Shown: piece after piece, positions 216 to 54,862 of the stretch
Numbering within the stretch: the stretch's first letter is position 1
Layout: the number at the start of each line of letters is the position of its first letter
Source of the DNA: a virus
Direction: 5' to 3' (one strand)
Length of the DNA: 64,000 nucleotides
Virus record (IMG/VR): IMGVR_UViG_3300046744_000223
Location: 64,001 to 128,000 of that record
Position numbers and translations under genes: made by a program
The notes under the pieces: generated by a model
Databases searched by the model: none
Seen by the model: only the letters and a program-made list of their open reading frames with translations
Told to the model about the DNA's origin: nothing

Positions 216-1481
216 TTAAAACGGATTAGAAATATCTTCGGTTTCAACATTGAACAAGTTATCATCTTGAGGAATTTCACCTAAGAACTTCTGAACATAT
301 TGTTTCATATAAACTCTTTCAGATTCAGCCCCACCACTTTGGTCGAACATTGGATAAACAGCCAACTCTGCAGCCTCACTTAGTGAGAACCCATCGTAGA
401 GTAGAGACCCAATCTCAACTGCGGTCCGTGTAGATAGTGCGTTAGATAACTTTGGAGACTCAGACATCAACTCGTTACGAGTCATGGAAGTCACCTCAGC
501 AACATTATTTAGAATCTCAATATCAACCGATGGGTACATCATTTGAAGTAGTTGAGTTTCCTCATCACGAGTCAAAGTATCCATTTCAATTGGAATGAAT
601 CGGTCAAGAATTGCCCGGTCAAGAGAACGTGTAGCGGTGTACTCATTACCAATGTTAGCAGAGGCGATGAACGAAACACCATCGGCGACCTTAACAACAG
701 GAGCGTCAGCAGCCTCATCGAGACGTAAGTAACGTTGACCTTGGTCAAGGACGGTCATTAGAATGTTGTGAGCCTCAGGATGGGCCCGAGTCAACTCATC
801 AAGAACAACCACGGTATTTGGAGTGGATATCGCCTTGACAAATGGTGATGGGTTAAACACCGTACCTTTCTTGGTTTCAAACTGAGTGTTCCCAATCAAT
901 GTGGTTCGTGGGTCTTGGGTAGCTCCCAAGTTAATTACAAAGGTGTTGTAACCTTCAATTGAATTGGCAGCAGCCTTAGCAGCCATAGTCTTACCACAAC
1001 CGGCTGGACCAGTCATCATAATATTCTTACCACGAATGATGTTACGAATAAGAAGTTTCCACTTCAAAGGATTCATGAACAACATCTGAGGTTTAAGACC
1101 TTCAGACTCCTCGTGAATAAACTTGAGGACATCATCTGACATCTCAACTGAAATTGGTGTTGATTGTGATTTTGGTTTATACTCCAATGATAACAACCCA
1201 CCATTTGGATTGTTGAAGTTACCAACAGGCTCAAGGTTATCTTCAACCTTTGATGATGGAACACGTGTATGTCCTAACTCACCATCGGACAATCGACCAA
1301 CGACACGAACCTTCCATCCCCACTTAGCAGGATTGTTGGCGGCCGCTCTGGCACGTTTGTAAAGAGAAGAACCCTTCTCGTTTAATTCCTCAATAAGGAA
1401 GTTAACTCCATTGGAGTCTTGAAACATTAGTTGATTGTCTACTTCTACAATCTTACCGAAAACTGATTTTTGTGACTTCAT
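216..1481 (-). CDS. MoxR/CbbQ/CobS-type AAA+ ATPase
   Basis: Walker A GPAGCGKT, Walker B VVVLDELTR, ASAN sensor, LDRAILDRF Arg finger, STR sensor II. Start moved to 1481 because the track start lies inside the promoter. Confidence 0.9.
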   Translation of the reverse strand: MKSQKSVFGKIVEVDNQLMFQDSNGVNFLIEELNEKGSSLYKRARAAANNPAKWGWKVRVVGRLSDGELGHTRVPSSKVEDNLEPVGNFNNPNGGLLSLEYKPKSQSTPISVEMSDDVLKFIHEESEGLKPQMLFMNPLKWKLLIRNIIRGKNIMMTGPAGCGKTMAAKAAANSIEGYNTFVINLGATQDPRTTLIGNTQFETKKGTVFNPSPFVKAISTPNTVVVLDELTRAHPEAHNILMTVLDQGQRYLRLDEAADAPVVKVADGVSFIASANIGNEYTATRSLDRAILDRFIPIEMDTLTRDEETQLLQMMYPSVDIEILNNVAEVTSMTRNELMSESPKLSNALSTRTAVEIGSLLYDGFSLSEAAELAVYPMFDQSGGAESERVYMKQYVQKFLGEIPQDDNLFNVETEDISNPF

Positions 1482-1498
1482 ATTTTTATATTTCTCAA

Positions 1499-1566
1499 TT
1501 ATTACTCTGTAAATATAGTGATTTAGGTTCACAACTCCAAACTTTTAATGTTAAGTTTATGTTAAC
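1499..1566 (-). promoter_or_regulatory. early promoter cassette: TTAACA-N5-TTAACA, TTTG(-33), N20, TATATTTA(-7)
   Basis: caaa 1538-1541 and taaatata 1510-1517 on +, 20-nt spacer; 30 nt identical to the copy at 1826-1855. Confidence 0.85.
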
Positions 1567-1780
1567 TTTTCATATGATAAAACCGATTGTAATAACCAAC
1601 CTCACCTACATTAACATCATTCAATGGGGTGTACCCATTATACTGATTGGTATCATACAACATTCGTTCAATCATTGTACACATACCTGCTTTGAACTTA
1701 TCATCGCAATACTCATCGGTACGTTGGAGTTGGTTGTTAACGTAATCTAAAACTTTTTTTACTTCAATTGTCTTTCTCAT
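1562..1780 (-). CDS. hypothetical protein
   Basis: ORF between two promoter cassettes; its TAA lies inside the distal TTAACA box. Confidence 0.75.
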   Translation of the reverse strand: MRKTIEVKKVLDYVNNQLQRTDEYCDDKFKAGMCTMIERMLYDTNQYNGYTPLNDVNVGEVGYYNRFYHMKS

Positions 1781-1791
1781 ATCTCTCAATC

Positions 1792-1866
1792 TTACAGTAC
1801 TAAAGTACGACATTTATTTTATAAATCCAAACTTTTAATGTTAAGTTTATGTTAAAGTTATCAACA
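1792..1866 (-). promoter_or_regulatory. early promoter cassette plus DnaA-box-like TTATCAACA (1858-1866)
   Basis: TTTG 1831-1828, N20, TACTTTAG 1807-1800, tandem TTAACA upstream. Confidence 0.85.
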
Positions 1867-3981
1867 TTAAATAGCAACTTCAAACTTCTTATTTAAGGTC
1901 TTAGCCAGTTGGGTCATATTATTGGTGTCAATAAATTCAGCATCGTTTCCATACATTTGTTTAAACCCATCAGTACCATGCCCCTCCCATTCGGATATGA
2001 AATATGACAACACCTTAACTCCAGCCTTTCTCATTTTAGACACTTGCTCTGCCGTATGTTTTCTGGCGGCTTGACCCCCATAAGAAATCTCTTGGTTATC
2101 AAAACCAGGGAAACCATCTGAGAAGTTTATTAGGTATGTGTCCACACCTGATTTGGTTTTAGTAATCTCATTCATCACAGCCTCATAACACAACCCCTCA
2201 GGAGTAGTACCATCGGATTGAATGTGTTTAAATAATTGTTGAATCTTTGAGAACTTATCTTTACGACTATCATATGCAATCAACATTAGTGGTTGACACT
2301 TACTCCAATTGCCTGGTGAGTAGTAGATACCTCGGTACGAAATAACAACATCAATGTTGTCAGTCATCGAAGCCGCCTTAGCAATAGCCACAGCAGCGGT
2401 TTGTGTACTATTCCATTTTGACCCATTCATTGATGAACTCGCGTCAATTGAAATATGTAATACAATCGGTGTAGTGTTACTTATTAAAGTTTGTTCAAAG
2501 ATATCGAAGTTACCAAACCCAATCTCATGAATCATACGACTACTCAACTTACCACTCTTCATTCGTGGGGTAGTGAGGACACGTTCCTCATTACGAGTCT
2601 TGAGTTTCTTACCAAGAATAGTACCCAACTGAATACCCTTCTTGATATACTTATCACTACTGCTGGTTCTGTATTCCGAATTAGTCAACATACCCACCAT
2701 ATCCGAATCAATTAACCCACGGGTTAAATTGTTAATAATGTAGGTTTGAACTCCATTGGAACCAACCGACCAATTACTTTTGGCGAATCCCTTACCAGTA
2801 ACCTCAGACTTGATATCAGCCTTATCTAATTGGTCAATCTTATTCTTGTCAGACTTGGAAATCTTCTTCTTCTTAACATCACCTTCTTGAAACTCTTTTT
2901 GTTTTTCAATAGCGTTATCCAACATTTTCTTTTGGCGGTCTGAGAGTGGTTCATATTGACCACCAGCTCCATTAGGATTACCTTCACCACTTGGAGACCC
3001 ACCTTGTGTAGACTCATCATCTGAATCTGAACCATCATCGGAGTCACTTGGTGATGTTTCACCATTTCCATTAGAACTCATACCATCATCAGAAGTGGGG
3101 TTATTCTCAGTGTCACCACTCATAGGTGACTCACCATTTTCACTATCACCACCTTGTGGTTCACCATCACCATTAGACGATGAGCCAGTATCACTACCGG
3201 CAACCTCAAGTTGTTTTTCAACAATCATAAGAATCTCACCAGCCACATCCATAGCTTCCCACGATGATTTTAGTCGTGATATGTTACGTAGATTAAGTAC
3301 ATTCCAAATCTCACGAAGACCTTTAAGAGCATCGAGGTCACGATTCTCGTTAGTCAAGTTGATGATACGGAACATATAAGAATCCCAATCCTCAGTACGA
3401 TACTCAGAAGACTCAAGACCTTTGTCAATTACCTTAGAGTGAAAGTACTTATCGTACATAGACTCGTAGTAACCACGATAGCCAGGCGCCGTAGTGTAAA
3501 CGTGATTATCAATACGTCTATCTTCAACGTAGTTAAGAAGTGATTTTAGATTGTTACTAACTATGTGACTAAGTTCATCAGTCTCACATTGGTAACGATT
3601 AGCCATCCACTCTTTATCAATAGTAGTGGGTAGGTAACCACGATTCATTTCCGTAAGTGTTGTAAAGTCAGTCAGTGCGATGTGAGAACCCTCGTGGAGA
3701 GCCAGACCAACAACAGGGTCGAACTCTTTATCATCTAACTTAGCCGATATAACAACCTCAGTACCATCAGTATAGGATTGGTCTCCACGACCATCAAAGG
3801 TCACAGGAATTGACTTGCCAGTTACGATGGAAACGAAGTTAGCGATACTACGTTTGTAAGACATTAACTTCATTAAGTCATTTGACTTCTTTTCTACTGA
3901 AGAAATCTCAGTATCATCGAAGATTGACTCATCAAGCCAGAACGATGAATAGGATAGATTATTTTTTGACATACTTCTCAT
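1867..3981 (-). CDS. VWA-domain protein with N-terminal HExxH metallopeptidase-like domain (CobT-like partner of the AAA ATPase)
   Basis: LHEGSH, ED.RI motif, acidic S/G/D linker, MIDAS DASSSM...T...SDG. Confidence 0.88.
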   Translation of the reverse strand: MRSMSKNNLSYSSFWLDESIFDDTEISSVEKKSNDLMKLMSYKRSIANFVSIVTGKSIPVTFDGRGDQSYTDGTEVVISAKLDDKEFDPVVGLALHEGSHIALTDFTTLTEMNRGYLPTTIDKEWMANRYQCETDELSHIVSNNLKSLLNYVEDRRIDNHVYTTAPGYRGYYESMYDKYFHSKVIDKGLESSEYRTEDWDSYMFRIINLTNENRDLDALKGLREIWNVLNLRNISRLKSSWEAMDVAGEILMIVEKQLEVAGSDTGSSSNGDGEPQGGDSENGESPMSGDTENNPTSDDGMSSNGNGETSPSDSDDGSDSDDESTQGGSPSGEGNPNGAGGQYEPLSDRQKKMLDNAIEKQKEFQEGDVKKKKISKSDKNKIDQLDKADIKSEVTGKGFAKSNWSVGSNGVQTYIINNLTRGLIDSDMVGMLTNSEYRTSSSDKYIKKGIQLGTILGKKLKTRNEERVLTTPRMKSGKLSSRMIHEIGFGNFDIFEQTLISNTTPIVLHISIDASSSMNGSKWNSTQTAAVAIAKAASMTDNIDVVISYRGIYYSPGNWSKCQPLMLIAYDSRKDKFSKIQQLFKHIQSDGTTPEGLCYEAVMNEITKTKSGVDTYLINFSDGFPGFDNQEISYGGQAARKHTAEQVSKMRKAGVKVLSYFISEWEGHGTDGFKQMYGNDAEFIDTNNMTQLAKTLNKKFEVAI

Positions 3982-23458: not shown

Positions 23459-24156
23459 CTTTTCTTATCTTCTAATAAGATTTGTTCATCTTTTTTTGGT
23501 TTAAGGTCTGGTGGTAAATCCGATTCTTCAACATCCCAACCAGTTTGCTTTTTTATGGTACGTAATACGTCCAACCTATCATCACGTGTGCCCGTACCCC
23601 AATACCATGCTAATGTTGATTTTTTATGTGATATACTTTCTTCTAGCTTTTTTAGATTCTTCAAAAGAATATCTTCGTCATCATCATCAAAATCATATTC
23701 TACATCATATTTACCAGCAAAATTAAGTAAAGTAGCTAAATCTAACTCATTAAATGCGTTGGACACTCTTTGAAACTCGGATTCAGTACCACCCTTATCA
23801 GGATGTGTGGCTATTGCTACTTTTTTATATAACTTCTTAATCCTATCAGGTCTATTTTTAATCTCAACGAGTCGTTTCTTCTTTTTTTCAGATTTCTCTC
23901 GTTCTACTCGTTTATTATCCTCTGCCATATCTTCGAACGACATACTTGGGGCTTCGTGTCGAACCTCTCCAGTTTCTTCATTTACCCAAATATGTCGTTC
24001 TTTAGCAGTAGGTGTACCTTTTTTAGGTTTTTTGTAGTATTTTTCGAAATAAAATTCAAAATCTGATACATACTCATCGAAAGACTCAATGGTATCCTCT
24101 TCTTCAAGTTTTAAATACTCATACTTTAAGTTATATTTTTTAAGCTTCCGATTCAC
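23440..24156 (-). CDS. J-domain co-chaperone
   Basis: IKKLYKKVAIATHPDKGG...FQRV..AF. Confidence 0.88.
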   Translation of the reverse strand: MNRKLKKYNLKYEYLKLEEEDTIESFDEYVSDFEFYFEKYYKKPKKGTPTAKERHIWVNEETGEVRHEAPSMSFEDMAEDNKRVEREKSEKKKKRLVEIKNRPDRIKKLYKKVAIATHPDKGGTESEFQRVSNAFNELDLATLLNFAGKYDVEYDFDDDDEDILLKNLKKLEESISHKKSTLAWYWGTGTRDDRLDVLRTIKKQTGWDVEESDLPPDLKPKKDEQILLEDKKSLDNKK

Positions 24157-25723
24157 TATCCTCTACCTCATTGACAATCATACATTCCGTGGTTAGTAAT
24201 GTAGATGCTACTGAGACAGCTTTTTCAAGTGCGGTTCGTGTTACTTTGGTTGGGTCAATTACACCCACTTCTAACATATCACACCATTGTTCAGTCACTA
24301 CATTATAACCATAAGTAGTTTGAGTTTCACCTTCTGGTGTATAAGTTAAACCTGCATTTTCTAAAATAGAATTAAAAGGTGAGTAACAGGCAGAACATAC
24401 AATATTGAATCCAGTTTCTTGGTCGGCTGATAATCTATCAACACCCATATGTATTCTATCACTTGCATGGATTAGAGCCGAACCCCCACCTGGCACAATA
24501 CCTTCTTCAACTGCAGCTTTTGTAGCAAGTAGAGCATCATCAATTCTATCTTTCTTTTCCTTCATCTCGATTTCAGATTCAGCACCTACTCTGAGAACTG
24601 CAACACCACCACTTAATTTAGATAATCGTTTGTGTAGTTTTTCTTTCTCATAGTCTGAACTTGATTCTTCGATTTCATTCTTGATTTGGTCAATACGGAG
24701 TTTGATATCATCCGATTCACCAGCACCACCAATGATTACTGATTTAGATTTACTAACCACTACTTTGTCAGCTGACCCTAAGTCATCCATTGTGATATCT
24801 TCCAACTCTTTACCAACACCACCAAACAAAGTAGCGCCGGTTAGAGCAGACATATCTCTCAACATCTCACTACGTTCGTTACCGAAGCCAGGTGCTTTGA
24901 TAGCAACACATTTTAAGGTTTGACGTGCTGAATTAACTACCATTGTAGCTAGCGCTTGCCCATCGACTTCTTGAGCAATTACTACAATTGCCTGATTCTT
25001 ACTTGATACACCCTCAAGGATACCAACGATGTCATCCATTTCTGAAATACGACCATCGTACATAAGAATCATAGGGTCTTCTAATTCAGAAGTCAATTTG
25101 GTTTGATTGTTAATGAAATAATGTGATAGGTATCCTTGTTCAAATTCCAATCCCTCTACAATAGTCAGTTCGTCATCACTTGAATTGCCCTCTTCAACAG
25201 TAATTACCCCATCACGACCAACTTGGTCCATTGCATCGGCAATCATAGAACCAATCACCGAATCACCATTTGCTGAGATTGTTGCTACCTGTTTGATTTG
25301 GTCGTTAGTTTCTACTTTAGTTGAAATGGTTTCAACAAGATTATTAACAATACCTTTTACTGCAGTATCCATCCCACGTTTCAATTCAATTGGGTTAGCT
25401 CCCTTTTCAATTGCATCCATACCTTTTTTAAAGATATCACGTGCAAGTACAGTTGAGGTAGTTGTCCCATCACCTGCGTTGTCAGCAGTTTGTTGAGATG
25501 CTTCTTTGATTACCTTAGCACCCAAGTTTTTGGTTGGGTCTGTAAATTCAATAGACTTAGCTACTGTAACCCCATCCTTTGTAATATGTGGTGTTGTATC
25601 AGTTTCAATAATCACGTTACGACCACGTGGTCCTAATGTAACTACAACTGCATCTGCTAATGCATCTACACCTTCTAAGAGTTTCTCTCTCGATGTCTTT
25701 CCGTAAAATACTTCTTTACCCAT
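24140..25723 (-). CDS. groEL: chaperonin GroEL
   Basis: TLGPRGRNV, TKDGVTVA, GDGTTT, EEGIVPGGG, IDPTKV. Confidence 0.98.
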   Translation of the reverse strand: MGKEVFYGKTSREKLLEGVDALADAVVVTLGPRGRNVIIETDTTPHITKDGVTVAKSIEFTDPTKNLGAKVIKEASQQTADNAGDGTTTSTVLARDIFKKGMDAIEKGANPIELKRGMDTAVKGIVNNLVETISTKVETNDQIKQVATISANGDSVIGSMIADAMDQVGRDGVITVEEGNSSDDELTIVEGLEFEQGYLSHYFINNQTKLTSELEDPMILMYDGRISEMDDIVGILEGVSSKNQAIVVIAQEVDGQALATMVVNSARQTLKCVAIKAPGFGNERSEMLRDMSALTGATLFGGVGKELEDITMDDLGSADKVVVSKSKSVIIGGAGESDDIKLRIDQIKNEIEESSSDYEKEKLHKRLSKLSGGVAVLRVGAESEIEMKEKKDRIDDALLATKAAVEEGIVPGGGSALIHASDRIHMGVDRLSADQETGFNIVCSACYSPFNSILENAGLTYTPEGETQTTYGYNVVTEQWCDMLEVGVIDPTKVTRTALEKAVSVASTLLTTECMIVNEVEDSESEA

Positions 25724-45631: not shown

Positions 45632-46386
45632 AATTCCTCGTATGCTCTTTTTATAAAGTATGATGAGTTTCTATTCAATCCATTTTTAGGAATTGCATTA
45701 AAATGATATACCCATGCTTGTTCGTATAGATTATCCATACCATCACCCCACCATGATTGGCCAAAGTTAAGTAGGTTCTTACTCGACATATGGTGTAGAT
45801 TGAATGTGGCAGGTAACATCTTCAAATCAATTCCTTGAGTTTGTATCAGATAGTTTATAACAGTTTGGTCAGTACCCAATCCTGCTTTTTGCTTTTCTAC
45901 CAAAGTATCTTGATTTTTAAAATAAAAGTCTAATACGTAATCAAAGAATTCTCTATGGGATTCGTTTACAATTTGAAATCCACCATTGAAATACATACCC
46001 CTATCCAACTTGTAGTCATCAAACATATCTTTGTAGTGTCTTAATGACCTACCAGTCCATTCCCAACATCCCAAATCAAGAACGCCCGTGTATTTACGTT
46101 CGTTCATTTCAAAGAAATTAGGTGTATCCGGATGGACTATTGTATCAGAATCAACCATTAGAACTTGGTCAAACTCTATATCATTATGGTCAAGTATTTT
46201 AAATAAGTGATATCGTTGCCATGGGATAGTCATCTCTTCCCAAGTATATAACGCAGTATCCCAAATTACAACTTCAGCATTATTTTTCTCGGCCCACTTC
46301 TGCCAAGATTGAATACTGTAATTGTATGCGTGGTGCCTTCCACGACCTGCATCAATTGCCGGTATGAATATTATGTTCTTTTTCAT
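45619..46386 (-). CDS. GT-A glycosyltransferase (GT8/GT34-like)
   Basis: VDSDT, YFNGG, DQTVIN, HF. Confidence 0.85.
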   Translation of the reverse strand: MKKNIIFIPAIDAGRGRHHAYNYSIQSWQKWAEKNNAEVVIWDTALYTWEEMTIPWQRYHLFKILDHNDIEFDQVLMVDSDTIVHPDTPNFFEMNERKYTGVLDLGCWEWTGRSLRHYKDMFDDYKLDRGMYFNGGFQIVNESHREFFDYVLDFYFKNQDTLVEKQKAGLGTDQTVINYLIQTQGIDLKMLPATFNLHHMSSKNLLNFGQSWWGDGMDNLYEQAWVYHFNAIPKNGLNRNSSYFIKRAYEELWGE

Positions 46387-47218
46387 TTATATAACTTGTT
46401 ATGTAATTATCTATATCCTTAGTTGGCATCCAACCAAGTATTTCATTAGCAAGTGTATCTTCACAAAGAGTTACCAATGCTTCACCTGGCTTATCATCTT
46501 CATAAACAATATCATCATAGTTGAACATATCTGCTATGTCTTTAACAGAGTAGTTTTTACCTCTACCAAGTTCAAAGTCATACCCATATGCCCCTTGTTC
46601 CATAATCTTTACTAATGCGTCTACGATATCGTCAATATGAGTAAAGTCTCTACGTTTAGTTCCATCACCAAAAATAGTAAGCGACTTCCCATCTTCAATT
46701 GCCTTTTCCCATTTACCAATTAAAGTACAATACCCACCATCTTTTAGATGATGTGGTCCATATACATTGTAAAATCGTGTAATTGATGATTTCAACTCAT
46801 AATGTTTCTGATAAAGTGAAATGATGTCTTCACCCACATCTTTTGAGAATGTGTATGGATTCTTAAATCTACCACTATGTTTTGATGATGAACCAGCGTA
46901 TATGATTGGTACGTTATTATTAGCACACCAATCTACCAAGTTCAGAGTTCCATTTGCATTGGTAGTAAAATATTCTTTGGGTAATTTGAATGATGGTTGG
47001 ATACGGGCAATTGCTGCCAAGTGAAATACAACATCAACATCCATAAACTCAGTAATGTTTCTGAGGTCGTGGTTTAGATACTTACATCCTTTTTGATGAT
47101 TTTGTACATTACCAGTATAATAATTGTCGATAGATACTACATTGTGTCCATCTTTCAATAATCTTTTGATGAGGTTTGTTCCTACAAAACCTGCACCACC
47201 TGTAACTAATATTTTCAT
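46352..47218 (-). CDS. NAD-dependent epimerase/dehydratase
   Basis: TGGAGFVG, YTFSK, RFYNVYG, RDFTH. Confidence 0.92.
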   Translation of the reverse strand: MKILVTGGAGFVGTNLIKRLLKDGHNVVSIDNYYTGNVQNHQKGCKYLNHDLRNITEFMDVDVVFHLAAIARIQPSFKLPKEYFTTNANGTLNLVDWCANNNVPIIYAGSSSKHSGRFKNPYTFSKDVGEDIISLYQKHYELKSSITRFYNVYGPHHLKDGGYCTLIGKWEKAIEDGKSLTIFGDGTKRRDFTHIDDIVDALVKIMEQGAYGYDFELGRGKNYSVKDIADMFNYDDIVYEDDKPGEALVTLCEDTLANEILGWMPTKDIDNYITSYINEKEHNIHTGN

Positions 47219-47853
47219 TATCCTAATCCTTTCCAAGTTGCACCATTACCAGTATAGTAGTGATTTACTTCAACTTTTGGTGTATATAAATATGATTTAC
47301 CATCTTTTAAAATATCAATTGCCCAATATCTATCTTCTTTTGTAGATAATTCCTCATCAAACGGAGTTTCTATCAAATCAGACTTATTGTAGAAACAAAA
47401 CGCATTATGTAAAAATGGTCTATCTTCAATAGTAGAATGCATATTAACCACCTCACTATCTACAAAATGAGACCATATATATCTCTTGTTAATTTTCTTT
47501 CCACGATATATTGGAATTTGATTACCAAATACTGCTGAATGAAACTTTAGTAATGATTGGACCGATTTCAAATCCATCTTAGTAATTTGAGAGTGTGCTG
47601 ATAGTATCAATATAATATCATTACTACACATATTGACTGCCACATTCAACGATTTACCTGGTGTATAGTTTTCTATATTAGAGGTTATTATATTGAGTCG
47701 TGTATTGAATAGTGTAACTACATCCATAGAATCATCAGTAGAGTTGTTATCCATCACAATCACCTCTGCATTAGGAATGTGGTCACATATAGATTGTAGT
47801 GTAAACCCAATATATTCACCCTCATTTCTATTTCTAACTATGATACTTATCAT
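47218..47853 (-). CDS. glycosyltransferase family 2
   Basis: SII...[13 protein letters not shown]....ED. Confidence 0.85.
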
Positions 47854-48656
47854 TTAAATATCCTCGATAATGTTGTATAATCAATAGCTTGTGCTGGGTC
47901 ACTTATAGACATATCTGGATTGGGGTGTGATTCTATAATCAACCCATCAGCACCAATGGCCATTGCAGCTTTAGATACCGGCTCTACAAAATTACGATAT
48001 CCAGTTGAATGACTTGGGTCATATATGATTGGGATGTTAGTAAACTCTTTCAAAGCAGGAATCATCATAAGGTCAGGTGCCCAACGTGTTGTTGGGTGTA
48101 TGTGTCTATAAGATGGCATTCCAACTACACCTCTAAGACATATAGCAACATTTCTATTACCACCTACTAAGATTCGTTCAACTGCGCCTAAGATTTCATC
48201 AAGAGTTCCCCAAGTACCTCGTTTGAGTAATACTGGAGTATCTTGCTTTCCAAGAGCGTCTAATAGTGTATAGTTCTGAAAATTACGAGTTCCTATTTGA
48301 AATACATCGGCAACCTCACCAACTTCATCAATCATACTCGCATCCATTACTTCAGTAACAATTGGGAGTCCAGATTCCTTCTTAGCAATCGCCAACAACT
48401 CAAGACCTTCTTTACGAAGACCCTCTTTCCACCCATTAGTTTCTTTTGTGATTGGGAATGTACATGGTTTGTAAGCACCTGCTCTTAGAGCATCCGCGCC
48501 ACATCTTTTCATATCTTTTGCAATCTCAATGATTGACTCACCCTCAACTGAACAAGGACCTGCAATCTTGAAGTAATCCCAATTGAAGGTTTCGTTTGGG
48601 TCGATTGAAATGTTTAACTTACCTTGGTCTTTTAGTGACTGAATGTATTCGTTCAT
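47850..48656 (-). CDS. type I-beta DAHP-synthase homolog with altered aldose-phosphate motif
   Basis: [24 protein letters not shown]; KPCT in place of KPRT; no regulatory domain. Confidence 0.85.
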
Positions 48657-49195
48657 TTGTAATATTGTTTTACTTTTTCTAAATCATCTTCAGTATGGAT
48701 ATCAGTAGCAGTTTCCTTTACACATCCGATTCGGTAACTAACTTTACCTTGTTTGAGTAAGTCGTACTTGAATAATCTCATTGCACCACTCCTACGATAT
48801 GTGTCATCTACCGTAATGATATCATCATACTTATTGTCAATCATATAGTCAAGACACTCATCAAGAGTGTTGACTCGATTGGGGTTATCTGGTTGTAATC
48901 CAACTACAATATCATACTCTTCTTTGATTTCATTGATGATGTGTTCATACACATCTACGACCTCAACATCCCCACACAAATCAGCAGGCCTCTTGTGGAA
49001 TCTTACTTCGTATTTATTACAAATCTCCTCAACAACATCACTCTCAGATGATACGATAACCTCTACATGGTATTGACTTGCGTTTGCGTAATCAACTGAA
49101 TGTAGGAACATGGGTTTACCATCAATCTCTCTAATGTTCTTGTGTTTTAGTCTTTTAGAATCCAGCTTTGCTGGAATTATTGCTAGTACTCTCAT
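48653..49195 (-). CDS. CMP-ulosonate synthetase (NeuA/KdsB-like) 1
   Basis: IIPA..SKRL..KN, LQP, DIHT.DD. Confidence 0.88.
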
Positions 49196-50115
49196 AATTT
49201 ATCTATACTCCATTTATATGCTTTGGTCTGACCTTGTATGGTCATTCCTCCTGTATGTGGTGTAAATATACAATTTAATTTTGAATTTTCCAAATTAAAG
49301 AATGGTGATTTAGATGGGTCACCAAACTCATTTTCGATAACATCAGTACCATACCCCCACAACTTACACTCGTGTAGTGCCTTTATGATATCAGTTTCAT
49401 TTACAATCTCACCACGGGATGTATTTACCAAGAACTTAACACCACGTGAAAGTAAATCATAATCAATCATATGTCGTGTTTCGTTTGTGACGTGTACGTG
49501 AAGTGATACTGCGTCACATATGTCAAACAACTCTTCCAATGTGTCAATATTAGACTCATCTGAATATGGGTCGTGGATGTAAACCTCAGCATCAAACGCT
49601 CTACAAAACTTAGCCATCATCTTACCCAATCTACCATAACCAACGATGCCAACTTTGTAGTCTTTCATTTGCTGGCCTACAAATGGTAGGTAATCCCAAC
49701 TTTTATCTCGTTTGGTCACATTGTTTGACATTGTGATGTTTCTCATCAAGTCAAGGAGTATCCCAAACGCCAATTCTGAGGTAGATGGTAGTTGATTGAT
49801 TAGTTCGAAGTCGTTTTTATGACATTGGATTTCAATACCCACCGATTCACAATATTCTAAGTCAATGTGATTTAGTCCGGTAGATGCGGTATTGATAATA
49901 CGAACCATAGTATTCCGTAACAACCCCTCATCAATTTTGTAACTTTGTTGATTTGGATTGCAGAATATAGTATCAATTGGGTTGTTAAGTAATAATTCTC
50001 TAACTTGGTGCCGTGTCCCATATTCTAACATAAAAACATCACCTTTTGAATCTAACAACTCAACTACCCCATCCAAATGGGTTACGGGAGTAACAACTGC
50101 AATCTTATTTTTCAT
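49192..50115 (-). CDS. D-isomer 2-hydroxyacid dehydrogenase
   Basis: GYGRLG, NTSRG, DV..E, TPH.GG. Confidence 0.9.
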   Translation of the reverse strand: MKNKIAVVTPVTHLDGVVELLDSKGDVFMLEYGTRHQVRELLLNNPIDTIFCNPNQQSYKIDEGLLRNTMVRIINTASTGLNHIDLEYCESVGIEIQCHKNDFELINQLPSTSELAFGILLDLMRNITMSNNVTKRDKSWDYLPFVGQQMKDYKVGIVGYGRLGKMMAKFCRAFDAEVYIHDPYSDESNIDTLEELFDICDAVSLHVHVTNETRHMIDYDLLSRGVKFLVNTSRGEIVNETDIIKALHECKLWGYGTDVIENEFGDPSKSPFFNLENSKLNCIFTPHTGGMTIQGQTKAYKWSIDKL

Positions 50116-50768
50116 TACATTGATTGTAAATCTTTCTCAAATAACTCAATACCCGTTGTAGTCAATGCGTGTTCGAACATTTGTTCAAGTACTTTCAATG
50201 GTACTGTGATTACATCAGCTCCTGCTTTTGCTGCTTTGACAACGTGCATTGGATGTCTTACACTTGAAACCATAATGTTAGTGTCAAACGAATATCTCTC
50301 GTTAAAGGTTTTTACCAACTCACCAATAAACAACATAGCATCATGACCCGTGTCATCAAGTCTACCAACTAACGGACAAATGTAAGTGGAATTAACATTA
50401 GCACATAGTATAGCCTGATTATGTGAGAATATCAGATGCATATTTGTTTTATCACCATTACGTGTTGCAGAATTACAGGCGTCAATACCTGCAGGTGAGA
50501 ATGGAATTTTAAAAACCAAATCAATGTCATTTGATTTTGCTTTTAATCGTTCGATATTAGATAAGATTTCATCCTTAGTAGTACCCCATGCTTCAACGTG
50601 AATTTCACCAACTGGCATAACTCCTCTGATTTTTTTAATCATATCGATGTCGTCATCCATACCATGTCGTTTCGCCAAAGTAGGGTTCGTAGTAACTCCG
50701 GCTAATATACCCATATCTGAGTATTTTTGAATTGAACTTAATTCTAAAGTGTCTAAAAATACTTTCAT
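50115..50768 (-). CDS. transaldolase/FSA (TalC) family
   Basis: GVTTNPTL, FKIP, P.VGRLDD, GAD..TVP. Confidence 0.9.
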   Translation of the reverse strand: MKVFLDTLELSSIQKYSDMGILAGVTTNPTLAKRHGMDDDIDMIKKIRGVMPVGEIHVEAWGTTKDEILSNIERLKAKSNDIDLVFKIPFSPAGIDACNSATRNGDKTNMHLIFSHNQAILCANVNSTYICPLVGRLDDTGHDAMLFIGELVKTFNERYSFDTNIMVSSVRHPMHVVKAAKAGADVITVPLKVLEQMFEHALTTTGIELFEKDLQSM

Positions 50769-51855: not shown

Positions 51856-52164
51856 TTATATTTCTTCTATTCTTTTTGTTTTGTCACAAATCAATAAGTC
51901 GTATGGTGGTTTCTCACCTACACTCAGGTGGTGATATTTACATCCCCAATCATCCAATTGCTTCTTAGTTACATCATACCAATCAATTCCCGTAGTACTT
52001 CCACGAGCGGTCCAATAGGTTATAGTATGACCTTCATCATACAATATACGAATTTTTTCTATATTTTCCAAATTTGGAATAGCTTCTGAGTAATCTGGAT
52101 TTATATAAGTTCTATTTTCATAAAAACATATGGTCTCATCTATATCAACGTATATATTCATCAT
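51856..52164 (-). CDS. small HAD phosphatase (capsule-biosynthesis type)
   Basis: DIDETI, WTARG, KP.YD..ICD. Confidence 0.85.
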   Translation of the reverse strand: MMNIYVDIDETICFYENRTYINPDYSEAIPNLENIEKIRILYDEGHTITYWTARGSTTGIDWYDVTKKQLDDWGCKYHHLSVGEKPPYDLLICDKTKRIEEI

Positions 52165-52973
52165 CTAATAACTTTACATATATTATTTAACATTGTTTCA
52201 AAATCACTTAATTTAATTGAGCTTGTTCCATCCGATAGTGCGTTATCTGGATCATCATGTACTTCTAAGAACATACCATCTACACCTACGGCTGCAGCAG
52301 CCTTTGCTAATGGTTCTATAAAATGTTTATTAGACCCACTGCTACCACCAGAACACCCTTTTTGAACTGCATGAGTTGCATCAAATATAACGGGAGCGTA
52401 TTCTCTCATAGTTACTAAGTTTCTCATGTCCACTACATAGTCACCATACCCAAAGGTATTTCCACGTTCGGTTAGAACAACTTTGTTATTATCAGATGAT
52501 ACTACTTTATCAACCACCCTCTCCATATCCAATCCATTTACAAATTGTGCTTTTTTAATATTTACTGGAAGGTTTGTTTTTGCAGAAGCCACCAATAAAT
52601 CAGTTTGTCTACATAAAAATGCTGGTATTTGTATTAGGTCAATTGAATCTTTTAATACATCAGCTTGCCATGGTTCGTGTATGTCAGTAGTTACTGGAAT
52701 ATCTAATTCAGTACGGATTTTATTAAATATACGAGATGCTTCTTCAATAGAAACTCCTCTGTAGTTTTGTAACCGAGTTCGATTTGCTTTATCAAAAGAT
52801 GCTTTAAAAATAAAAGGAATACCCAACTTAGAAGTAATACGTTTTAACTCACGTGCCATATGTAAGGTATGTTCTTCACTTTCTATGACACATGGGCCGG
52901 ATATCAATACAAATGGCAATGATTCGCCAAATGTTATACCATCTCTTATTGTAACTGATTTAATTTTTTTCAT
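52161..52973 (-). CDS. kdsA: KDO-8-phosphate synthase
   Basis: GPCVIES, KASFDKANRT, QIPAFLCRQTDL, ERG..FGY, DATH. Confidence 0.95.
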   Translation of the reverse strand: MKKIKSVTIRDGITFGESLPFVLISGPCVIESEEHTLHMARELKRITSKLGIPFIFKASFDKANRTRLQNYRGVSIEEASRIFNKIRTELDIPVTTDIHEPWQADVLKDSIDLIQIPAFLCRQTDLLVASAKTNLPVNIKKAQFVNGLDMERVVDKVVSSDNNKVVLTERGNTFGYGDYVVDMRNLVTMREYAPVIFDATHAVQKGCSGGSSGSNKHFIEPLAKAAAAVGVDGMFLEVHDDPDNALSDGTSSIKLSDFETMLNNICKVIR

Positions 52974-53613
52974 TTGCTAAACATTCTGCTATTTTAAAAT
53001 CACTTGGTGTATCAATGTCCCATGCTTCCAACATATCAACTGTTTTAATATATGGGTTGAAGCCAATTCTTCTTTTGTGTTTCTTATACATATCCTTCGA
53101 GAATATATATAATCCGGAGTTTTCAACAATAATTGGCTTTAAGTCTTGAGTACGACTAATAGTTGAAGACATATTATAATTTAAGGGATTACCATCATAC
53201 CAACAAAAATTGTTTACTTCATATGCTAAAAATGCCGAATCGTATTCGTTTGACTTTATTTTGTCTATCATATCTACTATGGTAGATTGTTTTACGAATG
53301 GGGAAGTTACTGATAAAAATACAATATAGTCTGTATTTATATCATCTATAACCGAATCCAATATATCGTTAAATGTAACATAGTCCCCATCAAACTTGGT
53401 ATCTCTTTTTAAGAATGTATAGTCTAAACTTGGATTTATGTAATCCACAACAGTGTCATCACTACAATACAAAAGTGTATCACTAATATCAGAAATTCCT
53501 GCTGCCTTGTCCACGCATATATTAACTAACGGATTACTATTAAGTGTCTTTATACTTTTTTGTGGTAATCGCTTACTATTTAGTCTAACTGTTATGTATG
53601 CTGTAAACTTCAT
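52960..53613 (-). CDS. CMP-ulosonate synthetase (NeuA-like) 2
   Basis: SKRLP.K, TSPF, RTQDL, E.SG.Y, DIDT..DF. Confidence 0.88.
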   Translation of the reverse strand: MKFTAYITVRLNSKRLPQKSIKTLNSNPLVNICVDKAAGISDISDTLLYCSDDTVVDYINPSLDYTFLKRDTKFDGDYVTFNDILDSVIDDINTDYIVFLSVTSPFVKQSTIVDMIDKIKSNEYDSAFLAYEVNNFCWYDGNPLNYNMSSTISRTQDLKPIIVENSGLYIFSKDMYKKHKRRIGFNPYIKTVDMLEAWDIDTPSDFKIAECLANEKN

Positions 53614-54326
53614 TTTTTTCTTGTTCTTAGGTTATCATATTCGAATGGATTTAGAAGCATTATTTTATTTTCAGAAATCCAGTTTTGTACAAAGTCCATT
53701 TGTCTAAATCTATGCTTATCACCTTTAAAGTAATCTTTTCGATTCTTTTTGTGTTCAGCATCTTCTTCTTTATTGTAAAAGTTTAAAGCCCTGTCATCCT
53801 CACCACCTTCTAGGTAAAAGGTATGTCCTATAATTGTTATTTTAGAAAAGTTAATAATTGCCCTATCTAATGTAATTAAACCAGTACCAACTCCTATGAA
53901 CTTTCCTAAAGCTTGATTTTTTTTATACTTATGTCTGAACTCCTTACCACCATAGTGTTTCGTTAAAAACCCCCAAGTATCACTATGTACATTTACATTA
54001 TCAAACTCATGGTATCTATGACTCATCTCGTGACCTACATCATCTTTTCTTGGCCAAATTGTAAGCGGTTCGGATTTGATTGGATGAAAATAATCCCATC
54101 TATAATTGCCAGTAGTAGACCAAATATCTATTTTCCTACCTGTGTGTTGATACATACCATCGAAAAAACATTTATTTACTCTAATTACAGTTTTAAACTT
54201 ATCAATATATTTACCAAAATTATAACAATTCAAAGATGGGCTTGTACCAACTACTATTACATCGGTTTGTGGTTCAAATGTCTCAAAGTAGTTGTCTAAC
54301 TTTTTAATATTGTCCAAAATCACCAC
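53610..54326 (-). CDS. GT29 (sialyltransferase)-like glycosyltransferase
   Basis: sialylmotif-L-like VVG.S..L....G..ID.F..V.R.N...G.K; TGL. Confidence 0.75.
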   Translation of the reverse strand: MVILDNIKKLDNYFETFEPQTDVIVVGTSPSLNCYNFGKYIDKFKTVIRVNKCFFDGMYQHTGRKIDIWSTTGNYRWDYFHPIKSEPLTIWPRKDDVGHEMSHRYHEFDNVNVHSDTWGFLTKHYGGKEFRHKYKKNQALGKFIGVGTGLITLDRAIINFSKITIIGHTFYLEGGEDDRALNFYNKEEDAEHKKNRKDYFKGDKHRFRQMDFVQNWISENKIMLLNPFEYDNLRTRKK

Positions 54327-54862
54327 ACCATTACTTTGTTATTCTCAATAAGGGTATTTACATAATCTATTTCAAGATTCCAACTATGATTGCCAGGTAT
54401 ATCTGATGACCCCTCTACTCCCCAATAATGATTAGTCTTTCCAAAATCAAATCCAACCAAGTTTAACACCTCATATGTATCTAACAAATAGTTAATTGTT
54501 AGAATGCCAGTAGACATTTTTTTAGAACCTAATTTGAAATCGGATATGTGGTAATCAAATCCATCATAGTTACTCTTTATATCCTCCAATCTACCAACTC
54601 GCTTATCAGTATTAGTAATCGTGGTAGTTTTAATTAAGTTTGGGTGTTGGTTTTTTATACTCTCTATGTTATTTACATAGTAGTTTCTACTATCGGTAGT
54701 AAGTGCATTGTTAAGTATCCAATGAGTACATTTGTTACCTATATAATCTTCAAATCCACGTACTCTGAATCTATTGAATCTATAAACGTGGTCGTATGAA
54801 TCAATCAGACTACCATGCTTTTGGGTTGTGTCGGCATTACCTACTAAGATACATTTATTCAT
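54320..54862 (-). CDS. GT29 (sialyltransferase)-like glycosyltransferase
   Basis: CILVGN..G..IDSYD.V.RFN..IG.K; STG; GFD..HY; H....E. Confidence 0.82.
   Translation of the reverse strand: MNKCILVGNADTTQKHGSLIDSYDHVYRFNRFRVRGFEDYIGNKCTHWILNNALTTDSRNYYVNNIESIKNQHPNLIKTTTITNTDKRVGRLEDIKSNYDGFDYHISDFKLGSKKMSTGILTINYLLDTYEVLNLVGFDFGKTNHYWGVEGSSDIPGNHSWNLEIDYVNTLIENNKVMVW

Follow-up and report, generated by a model that had tools for sequence, protein, structure and literature searches.

A conserved phage gene module predicted to make and activate a 3-deoxy-2-ulosonic acid with an Arg-less DAHP synthase homologue

We studied a five-gene block in a window of 64,000 nucleotides, that is, the whole stretch of DNA analysed (bases 64001-128000 of the 172,940-bp IMG/VR record IMGVR_UViG_3300046744_000223, estimated completeness 90%). 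The source virus is a T4-like marine phage of 173 kb. One of the five genes encodes a homologue of type Iβ DAHP synthase (DAHPS) without the arginine that binds erythrose 4-phosphate (E4P), called Arg-less below. In viruses as well as in cells, this synthase has genetic links to a CMP-transferase and a family 2 glycosyltransferase (GT2). We propose, with a probability of roughly 0.6, that a four-gene module joins phosphoenolpyruvate (PEP) to a non-phosphorylated aldehyde, and that the resulting 3-deoxy-2-ulosonate would be turned into a CMP-sugar and transferred.

The block and the surrounding region lie entirely on the minus strand, and its consecutive genes overlap by 1, 4, 4 and 4 nt. In order, they encode TalC, a class-5 transaldolase (P0004, 217 aa; 50115-50768; PF00923, 130 bits), a D-2-hydroxyacid dehydrogenase (2HADH; P0003, 307 aa; 49192-50115; PF02826, 130.7 bits, and PF00389, 26 bits), a short CTP_transf_3 cytidylyltransferase (CTase; P0002, 180 aa; 48653-49195; PF02348, 63.5 bits against a cut-off of 22.6), the Arg-less type Iβ DAHPS homologue (P0001, 268 aa; 47850-48656; PF00793, 171 bits) and a small soluble GT2 (P0005, 211 aa; 47218-47853; PF00535, 62 bits). 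An earlier reading of the same DNA, made without database searches (the sequence-only reading), had described five coupled genes in this order, and the coordinates and overlaps agree with it.

The synthase has lost two arginines

P0001 aligns over the full barrel with solved type Iβ enzymes (Aeropyrum pernix 1VS1, E 1.6e-54; Pyrococcus furiosus 1ZCO, E 2.6e-52). It is a bare barrel of 268 aa in which the regulatory domain is absent, as had been noticed earlier, and its AlphaFold model (pLDDT 87.7) has barrel secondary structure. The protein stays under the NCBIfam equivalog cut-offs for DAHPS (TIGR01361, 235.7 vs 267.75; NF006421, 264.5 vs 335) as well as those for KDO8P synthase (NF003543, 91.5 vs 242; TIGR01362, 88.6 vs 314), and it has no KANRS motif. 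The NeuB family PF03102 is a secondary match of 25.3 bits, and the SAF domain is absent.

In the alignment, residues K63-P64-C65-T66-F67-P68 of P0001 face KPRTSP in the A. pernix and P. furiosus enzymes, the substitution already seen in the sequence-only reading. KPCT[YF]P is present in 125/125 of the close homologues whose motif could be read, so it is not an error.

To assign roles to the residues, we mapped P0001 onto the ligand roles given for DAHPS in PMC6362186, in which the Arg of KPRT binds E4P in the T. maritima complex. The metal ligands (C35, H216, E242 and D253) and the PEP ligands (R58, K63, R124, K145 and R175) are all retained. The Arg of KPRT is Cys65 in P0001, and the Ser that follows in the motif is replaced by Phe or Tyr. 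The comparison set comprised 132 canonical representatives, 25 viral sequences and 106 from GTDB genomes. Position 65 is Arg in 132 of the 132 canonical representatives; in the Arg-less sequences it is Cys, Leu or Ala, and Phe or Tyr stands in place of the KPRTS Ser. A second arginine, at position 178 (ERGIR), is gone from every Arg-less sequence and is Val178 in P0001. In the canonical set this position holds Arg in 116/132 and Lys in 6/132 sequences, and Arg is also found there in 8/8 KPRT[FY]P sequences. Both R65 and R178 are absent from 123 Arg-less sequences (for the GTDB part, among the matches listed). We infer that these two covarying arginines may form one anion site.

The sequence-only reading had suggested a non-standard substrate, perhaps unphosphorylated or oxidised. 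With the arginines lost, a non-phosphorylated substrate is reasonably supported, while the evidence for an oxidised one is circumstantial and comes from the 2HADH and from neighbouring genes in SAR11, described below.

Apart from the lost arginines, the viral clade carries two 6-residue insertions, in the β2-α2 and β6-α6 loops, which hold the invariant residues W76, R184 and H185; a separate invariant change is Y161R. The loops with the insertions are the sole low-confidence regions of the AlphaFold model.

Four of the five genes are conserved together

From IMG/VR, we compared 11 related loci (L001-L011; 62-84% identity). The 2HADH, CTase and synthase genes were present in 11/11 of them. The CTase gene lies directly upstream of the synthase gene in all 11, a few having one open reading frame (ORF) inserted between; the GT2 gene follows the synthase gene immediately in 8/11 loci and has another place within the locus in the remaining three. 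The ORFs inserted between cassette genes (L003, L007, L009 and L011) had no Pfam matches. TalC was found in 0/11 loci and nowhere else on those contigs.

Additionally, a lineage at 93% identity keeps the exact five-gene order, TalC included, and a lineage at 81% identity (L028-31) has CTase, synthase and GT2 genes in a row, with the 2HADH gene 5 kb upstream and no TalC. Cassette conservation was also seen in L022 and L023-31. The conserved unit is thus four genes: 2HADH, CTase, Arg-less synthase and GT2. The neighbourhood search that had been suggested earlier therefore bears out the gene block for these four and not for TalC as a fifth member.

In one related phage (L009:8868-11205), the synthase gene is followed by a class-III aminotransferase gene and one for a 388-aa CTase-containing protein, pointing to an aminated form of the sugar there.

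In cultured phages, a DNA search with the 3.5-kb block gave no match, and protein searches gave only matches of ~40%, which resemble host DNA inside phage records. The cassette is absent from cultured phage isolates.

The Arg-less clade is shared with cells

The homologue search covered 1.84 billion representatives at 50% identity. In the tree, viral sequences and cellular KP[L/A/C]TFP proteins fall in one clade (SH-aLRT 98) nested inside type Iβ DAHPS. One KPCTYP protein, P0140, is placed outside the clade, where the Arg-bearing P0146 (KPRTAP), which adjoins a prephenate dehydratase, groups with it.

We also scanned GTDB species genomes with a degenerate DNA pattern for R-[AG]-G-x-[YF]-K-P-x-T-[FY]-P, which returned at least 120 loci. 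Among the matches listed, to which the GTDB counts that follow also refer, 111 are real DAHPS homologues and ~86 of these have FKPLTFP. The carriers of FKPLTFP include Pelagibacteraceae, Prochlorococcus, Thalassobaculum, Azospirillum, Acidobacteriota, Omnitrophota, Saccharibacteria and other members of the candidate phyla radiation (CPR), and the complete genome of Prochlorococcus MIT 9302 is one of them. SAR11, Prochlorococcus, Thalassobaculum and CPR genomes often carry members of the Arg-less clade. The closest cellular relatives among the matches listed, at 63-67% identity, come from two SAR11-type contigs of single amplified genomes (SAGs) and have KPCTYP and KPATFP.

In the FKPLTFP proteins, two further changes were observed: G219 is Phe in 86/86, and the metal-ligand Cys is Asn in 48/86 (loci L033-L152). 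A Cys/Asn switch separates metal-dependent from metal-independent KDO8P synthases.

Near every Arg-less representative with readable context there is a CTP_transf_3 gene, and usually a GT2 gene too. To count neighbours, we used plain BLASTP with the window proteins as queries within the same 8-kb block; iterated hidden Markov models for the CTase and the GT2 merged via fusion proteins, and the BLASTP counts were used instead. A CTase homologue was found in 60/101 Arg-less GTDB loci vs 0/10 Arg-keeping loci (Fisher p = 2.5e-4), and a homologue of the GT2 (GT2_211) in 57/101 and 0/10, respectively, rates that are lower bounds given that the 8-kb blocks are off-centre.

In MIT 9302 the neighbours of the Arg-less gene encode a GFO/IDH/MocA oxidoreductase and shikimate-dehydrogenase-like, PseF-like and PseG-like proteins. 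This paralogue (FKPLTFP; L069:2046-2948, NZ_CP138951.1) reaches 275.9 bits with TIGR01361, over the cut-off of 267.75, and pipelines will therefore label it DAHP synthase; the genome holds another DAHP_synth_1 gene.

In SAR11-type operons (L140:97-2922 and L116:4180-7117), a homologue of MR/MLE acid-sugar dehydratases and a 2HADH precede the Arg-less synthase. L140 also has a NeuB+SAF synthase, a GT2, a short-chain dehydrogenase/reductase (SDR) and an ABC exporter nearby.

These data bear on a literal reading of the annotation. By its Pfam and NCBIfam name P0001 is a DAHP synthase, its metal and PEP sites are intact and TalC is adjacent; it could thus be a genuine DAHPS, an auxiliary metabolic gene (AMG) that supplies aromatic amino acids from E4P made by TalC, with the sugar genes as unrelated neighbours. 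We regard this as highly improbable. The E4P-binding Arg is gone in every one of the 125 homologues, the score lies below the equivalog cut-offs, and CTase and GT2 consistently flank the synthase. Nor does the phage have other shikimate genes: no DHQ synthase or chorismate synthase gene was found in the whole 172,940-bp record by searches that were positive in control genomes, which extends what the sequence-only reading had reported for the window. Finally, 4/5 of the carrier genomes checked own a separate type I or type II DAHPS; in the fifth, a 0.9-Mb metagenome-assembled genome (MAG) of Uhrbacteria, the Arg-less gene is the only DAHPS-type gene found. The earlier suggestion that this is not an aromatic amino-acid gene is supported by the lost Arg and a CTase/GT2 linkage conserved in phages and cells.

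A second alternative is that P0001 belongs to a Kdo-like paralogous route, in which relocated basic residues would hold a sugar phosphate (E4P, arabinose 5-phosphate (A5P) or a longer one) and a HAD enzyme of the phage or the host would remove the phosphate before CMP activation. Invariant R161, R184 and H185, together with K71/K77 in the two clade-specific loop insertions by the active site, could serve such a site, small HAD-like ORFs occur in the islands, and TalC, which makes E4P, is operon-coupled in the present lineage. The cellular KPLTFP members, however, lack the two viral-clade insertions and are CTase-associated all the same. Moreover, the replacement of Ser by Phe/Tyr and of Arg by Cys/Leu/Ala makes the site hydrophobic, L001-L011 have no conserved phosphatase alongside the cassette, and most relatives are without TalC. 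We thus consider a sugar phosphate substrate rather unlikely.

The cytidylyltransferase and the glycosyltransferase

P0002 aligns to residues 6-113 of the CMP-Neu5Ac synthetase of N. meningitidis, including IIPAK..SK..KN (P-loop) and LQPDNP (QP motif). At 180 aa, it is shorter than the full-length CTP_transf_3 architecture of ~220-250 aa with the dimerisation insert, its relatives having 181-202 aa, and it scores far under every NCBIfam KdsB/PseF cut-off. We propose that P0002 is a CMP-ulosonate synthetase.

In the P0005 family, an invariant S85-x-H87 occupies the DxD position (10 homologues), and the ED motif (E173-D174) is kept. The S-x-H might go with a monophosphate (CMP) donor or with a role other than transfer. 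P0005 is our proposed glycosyltransferase of the module.

Beside cellular Arg-less synthases, we observed recurrent fusions of ~450 aa with an N-terminal phage-type GT2 and a C-terminal CTP_transf_3 domain (L041:3003-4367, L058:3477-4841 and L021:7317-8672). L041 also has a CTase-methyltransferase fusion. Judged from the sequences, the GT2-CTase fusion is a Rosetta-stone link between the CTase and GT2 genes that flank the synthase gene in the phage.

The missing DxD leaves room for another role of P0005. As a nucleotide-sugar hydrolase, it would free the aldose (the job of PseG or NeuC), and another glycosyltransferase of the island would transfer the CMP-sugar. This would fit the invariant S-x-H, the tight linkage or fusion of the GT2 domain with the CTase in cells, the GT29-like CMP-sugar transferases in the island, and the fact that no NeuC or PseG homologue was found in the phage. 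We nevertheless think it very unlikely: the ED motif of GT2 transferases is conserved, the GT29-like genes belong with a separate KdsA module, and to our knowledge a GT2-fold hydrolase in such a pathway has no precedent.

The dehydrogenase and the transaldolase

In P0003, the glycines G159/G161/G164 (GxGxxG) and the catalytic residues R234/E263/H287 are invariant across 11 sequences, and both domains are present. The protein reaches no equivalog cut-off. Substrates of the 2HADH family are alpha-hydroxy/keto-carboxylates. A distant 2HADH also adjoins the SAR11-type synthases, and together with the MR/MLE dehydratase neighbours there it gives circumstantial support for a carboxylated ('oxidised') substrate. 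A look-up in the ESM Atlas with the 2HADH returned viral 2HADH clusters only and no functional lead. A KdgF-type cupin beside the 2HADH of L028, which would have pointed to unsaturated uronates, was rejected, as no KdgF structure was among the PDB matches.

TalC aligns end to end with 1VPX, 3R8R and 3S0C, with the Schiff-base K87 in place as well as E59, where FSA enzymes have Gln. Its best PDB match is T. maritima transaldolase (E 2e-47), fructose-6-phosphate aldolase (FSA) following at E 1e-18, and it is under the TIGR00875 cut-off (181.9 vs 245.95). At the switch position, which holds Phe in transaldolases and Tyr in fructose-6-phosphate aldolases, TalC has Leu (CPLVGR). Given the far stronger transaldolase matches and Glu59, we reject an FSA-type aldolase making A5P or tetroses.

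The sequence-only reading had placed TalC in the pathway. That part fails: TalC is missing from the 11 IMG/VR relatives as well as from the 81%-identity lineage and occurs only in near-identical genomes. TalC reads as a pentose-phosphate AMG inserted between a Kdo-type module and the cassette, that is, as a lineage-specific accessory. It may supply E4P in the present lineage.

The same reading had proposed that PEP is condensed with a tetrose or tetruronate, the C4 unit coming from TalC, to give a 7-carbon heptulosonate or heptulosarate similar to 3-deoxy-lyxo-heptulosaric acid (Dha). The synthase does descend from the 7-carbon-forming DAHPS branch and not from KDO8P synthase (KDO8PS) or NeuB, the 2HADH and the SAR11 MR/MLE acid-sugar dehydratase neighbours would suit a carboxylated substrate, and TalC lies within the operon here. 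The β2-α2 loop, which sets substrate length, is however remodelled by a 6-aa insertion, and the cellular clade is found in pseudaminic-acid-type loci (PseG-like, PseF-like), which suggests longer 6-deoxy sugars there. As TalC is not conserved with the cassette, and chain length and Dha identity are unsupported by the present data, we find this specific route improbable. Descent from DAHPS would in itself favour a C7 product; the remodelled length-setting loop and the nonulosonate-type loci of the cellular clade are to be set beside it.

Proposed pathway

In the pathway that we prefer, P0001 would be a metal-dependent (β/α)8 enzyme of type Iβ DAHPS descent that joins PEP and a phosphate-free aldehyde into a free 3-deoxy-2-ulosonic acid. 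Presumably no phosphatase is needed, since the phosphate-binding arginines are lost and no phosphatase is conserved. The adjacent CTase would then turn the ulosonic acid into a CMP-sugar, an activation suggested by its family membership, its conserved adjacency and the GT2-CTase fusions in cells. Finally, the GT2 would move the sugar onto a glycan or protein that the surrounding island makes as acceptor; alternatively, it might free the aldose from a nucleotide sugar. The weakest step is that of the 2HADH. Since the C1-C2 keto acid must stay intact for CMP activation, this enzyme most likely acts on a carboxylated precursor, or on a second carboxyl end of the sugar, to prepare or tailor it. 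Many marine and candidate-phyla bacteria carry the same synthase clade together with CMP-transferase partners, so the phage probably borrowed a cellular ulosonate pathway.

Several points weigh against this pathway. Both the enzyme activity and the aldehyde substrate of P0001 are predictions, and the structural role of R178 is undocumented in the literature consulted on ligand roles. The new invariant basic residues of the viral clade (R161, R184, H185 and K71/K77) could rebuild an anion site, and a phosphorylated or carboxylated substrate could be bound in another way. Small HAD-like genes are present in some islands (51856-52164 in the window; one of 124 aa in L028). GT2 enzymes usually take NDP-sugars rather than CMP-sugars. 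The Arg-keeping control for co-occurrence comprises ten loci (n=10). Identity between the phage 2HADH and those of the SAR11 loci is only 22-25%, and the partnership that they share may be coincidental.

Comparison with known systems

P0001 shares fold, length, the four metal ligands and all PEP residues with type Iβ DAHPS in its unregulated form (1ZCO, 1VS1). It differs in the change from KPRTS to KPCT(F/Y), the loss of the ERGIR Arg, the two 6-residue insertions, and partners that are a CMP-transferase and a GT2 instead of aro genes.

The Kdo pathway (KdsA-KdsC-KdsB-transferase) follows the same general course, from PEP and an aldose to a 3-deoxy-2-ulosonate, a CMP-sugar and its transfer, and the synthase superfamily and the Pfam family of the CTase are shared. 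The phage module, in contrast, lacks the KANRS motif, an isomerase and a conserved phosphatase, it adds a 2HADH, and it has a GT2 instead of GT30, GT99 or GT107.

The pathways to sialic, pseudaminic and legionaminic acids (NeuB/PseI + NeuA/PseF) resemble the module in their non-phosphorylated aldose (proposed here), the lack of a phosphatase and direct CMP activation. In addition, P0002 aligns best to CMP-Neu5Ac synthetase, and the cellular Arg-less clade occurs in PseG/PseF-type loci. P0001, however, is of DAHPS descent and not of the NeuB family, and the phage is without a NeuC/PseG-type hydrolase.

Similarly, the phage TalC is a short class-5 transaldolase like the cyanophage AMG (39% identical to the TalC of P-GSP1 and P-SSP2). 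It lies in a glycan operon and not among photosynthesis and pentose-phosphate AMGs, and it has Leu at the Phe/Tyr switch.

NeuB, DAHPS and KDO8PS are listed as the main alpha-carboxyketose synthases in PMC12531865 (2025). Our literature searches turned up no publication that deals with an Arg-less DAHPS clade or with the way in which Dha is made.

The virus and its glycan island

Among the genes of the virus are those for a T4-type major head protein, portal, terminase and DNA polymerase. The capsid protein shares 55-57% identity with its counterparts in Flavobacterium phage immuto and Microcystis phage Mel-JY01. The virus also codes for a GroEL-type chaperonin (phrog_5725, E 3e-163) and CobS/CobT-like AAA+ proteins (window 216-3981 and 24140-25723).

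The cassette lies in a glycosyltransferase island of ~20 kb that also contains genes for a UDP-sugar dehydrogenase, an SDR epimerase, two GT29-like proteins and two methyltransferases. Directly downstream of the cassette is the SDR, an NDP-sugar epimerase/dehydratase (46352-47236, minus strand; PF01370, 155 bits), homologues of which are found near the cassette in L001, L004, L006 and L009-11.

Upstream, a separate Kdo-type module (51856-54862) holds genes, among others, for two GT29 (sialyltransferase-family) proteins. Its KDO8P synthase is a true KdsA (52161-52973, minus strand; NF003543, 355.9 bits against a cut-off of 242; TIGR01362, 345 bits against 314). This KdsA is the genome's second PF00793 match, lies 3.5 kb upstream of the P0001 gene and is 27% identical to P0001. 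The module also encodes a second cytidylyltransferase of 217 aa (52960-53613, minus strand; PF02348, 64.6 bits) and the weak HAD-like ORF of 102 aa (51856-52164, minus strand). The two methyltransferase genes lie between the Kdo-type module and TalC. No KdsD-type (SIS) isomerase was found in the phage.

As for the host, a viral-type KPCTYP cassette at 79% identity lies on a contig (L080) of the Bacteroidetes SAG AG-422-M18, a possible phage-host link. Together with the capsid protein similar to that of a Flavobacterium phage, this cassette hints at a host among Bacteroidota. Another viral-type KPCTYP cassette, at 76% identity, was found on a 3.3-kb contig of a Nitrosopelagicus MAG bin (L052) and looks like a mis-binned phage fragment.

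Implications

In a broader and more tentative proposal, possible though somewhat doubtful in our view, the KPxT[FY]P clade would be a fourth class of PEP-dependent alpha-carboxyketose synthases that makes an undescribed CMP-activated ulosonic or ulosaric acid. This sugar would be present on the surfaces of SAR11 and Prochlorococcus, which rank among the most abundant bacteria in the ocean, and of CPR bacteria; for phages of marine Bacteroidota, the genes would serve to glycosylate virions or to alter the host surface. In the sub-clade of viruses and SAR11, which has a 2HADH partner, the product would be a dicarboxylic, Dha-like sugar. There is a realistic chance that the sugar itself is new.

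If the proposed pathway is true, automatic annotation as '3-deoxy-7-phosphoheptulonate synthase' would be wrong for genes of SAR11, Prochlorococcus, many candidate-phyla bacteria and abundant marine phages, and this would distort reconstructions of aromatic amino-acid metabolism. The pathway would also mean a new substrate class for a well-studied enzyme family and a new acidic sugar at the surface of marine microbes or virions. Should the sugar be dicarboxylic, the finding would bear on the origin of Dha and would provide a first biosynthetic route to such sugars.

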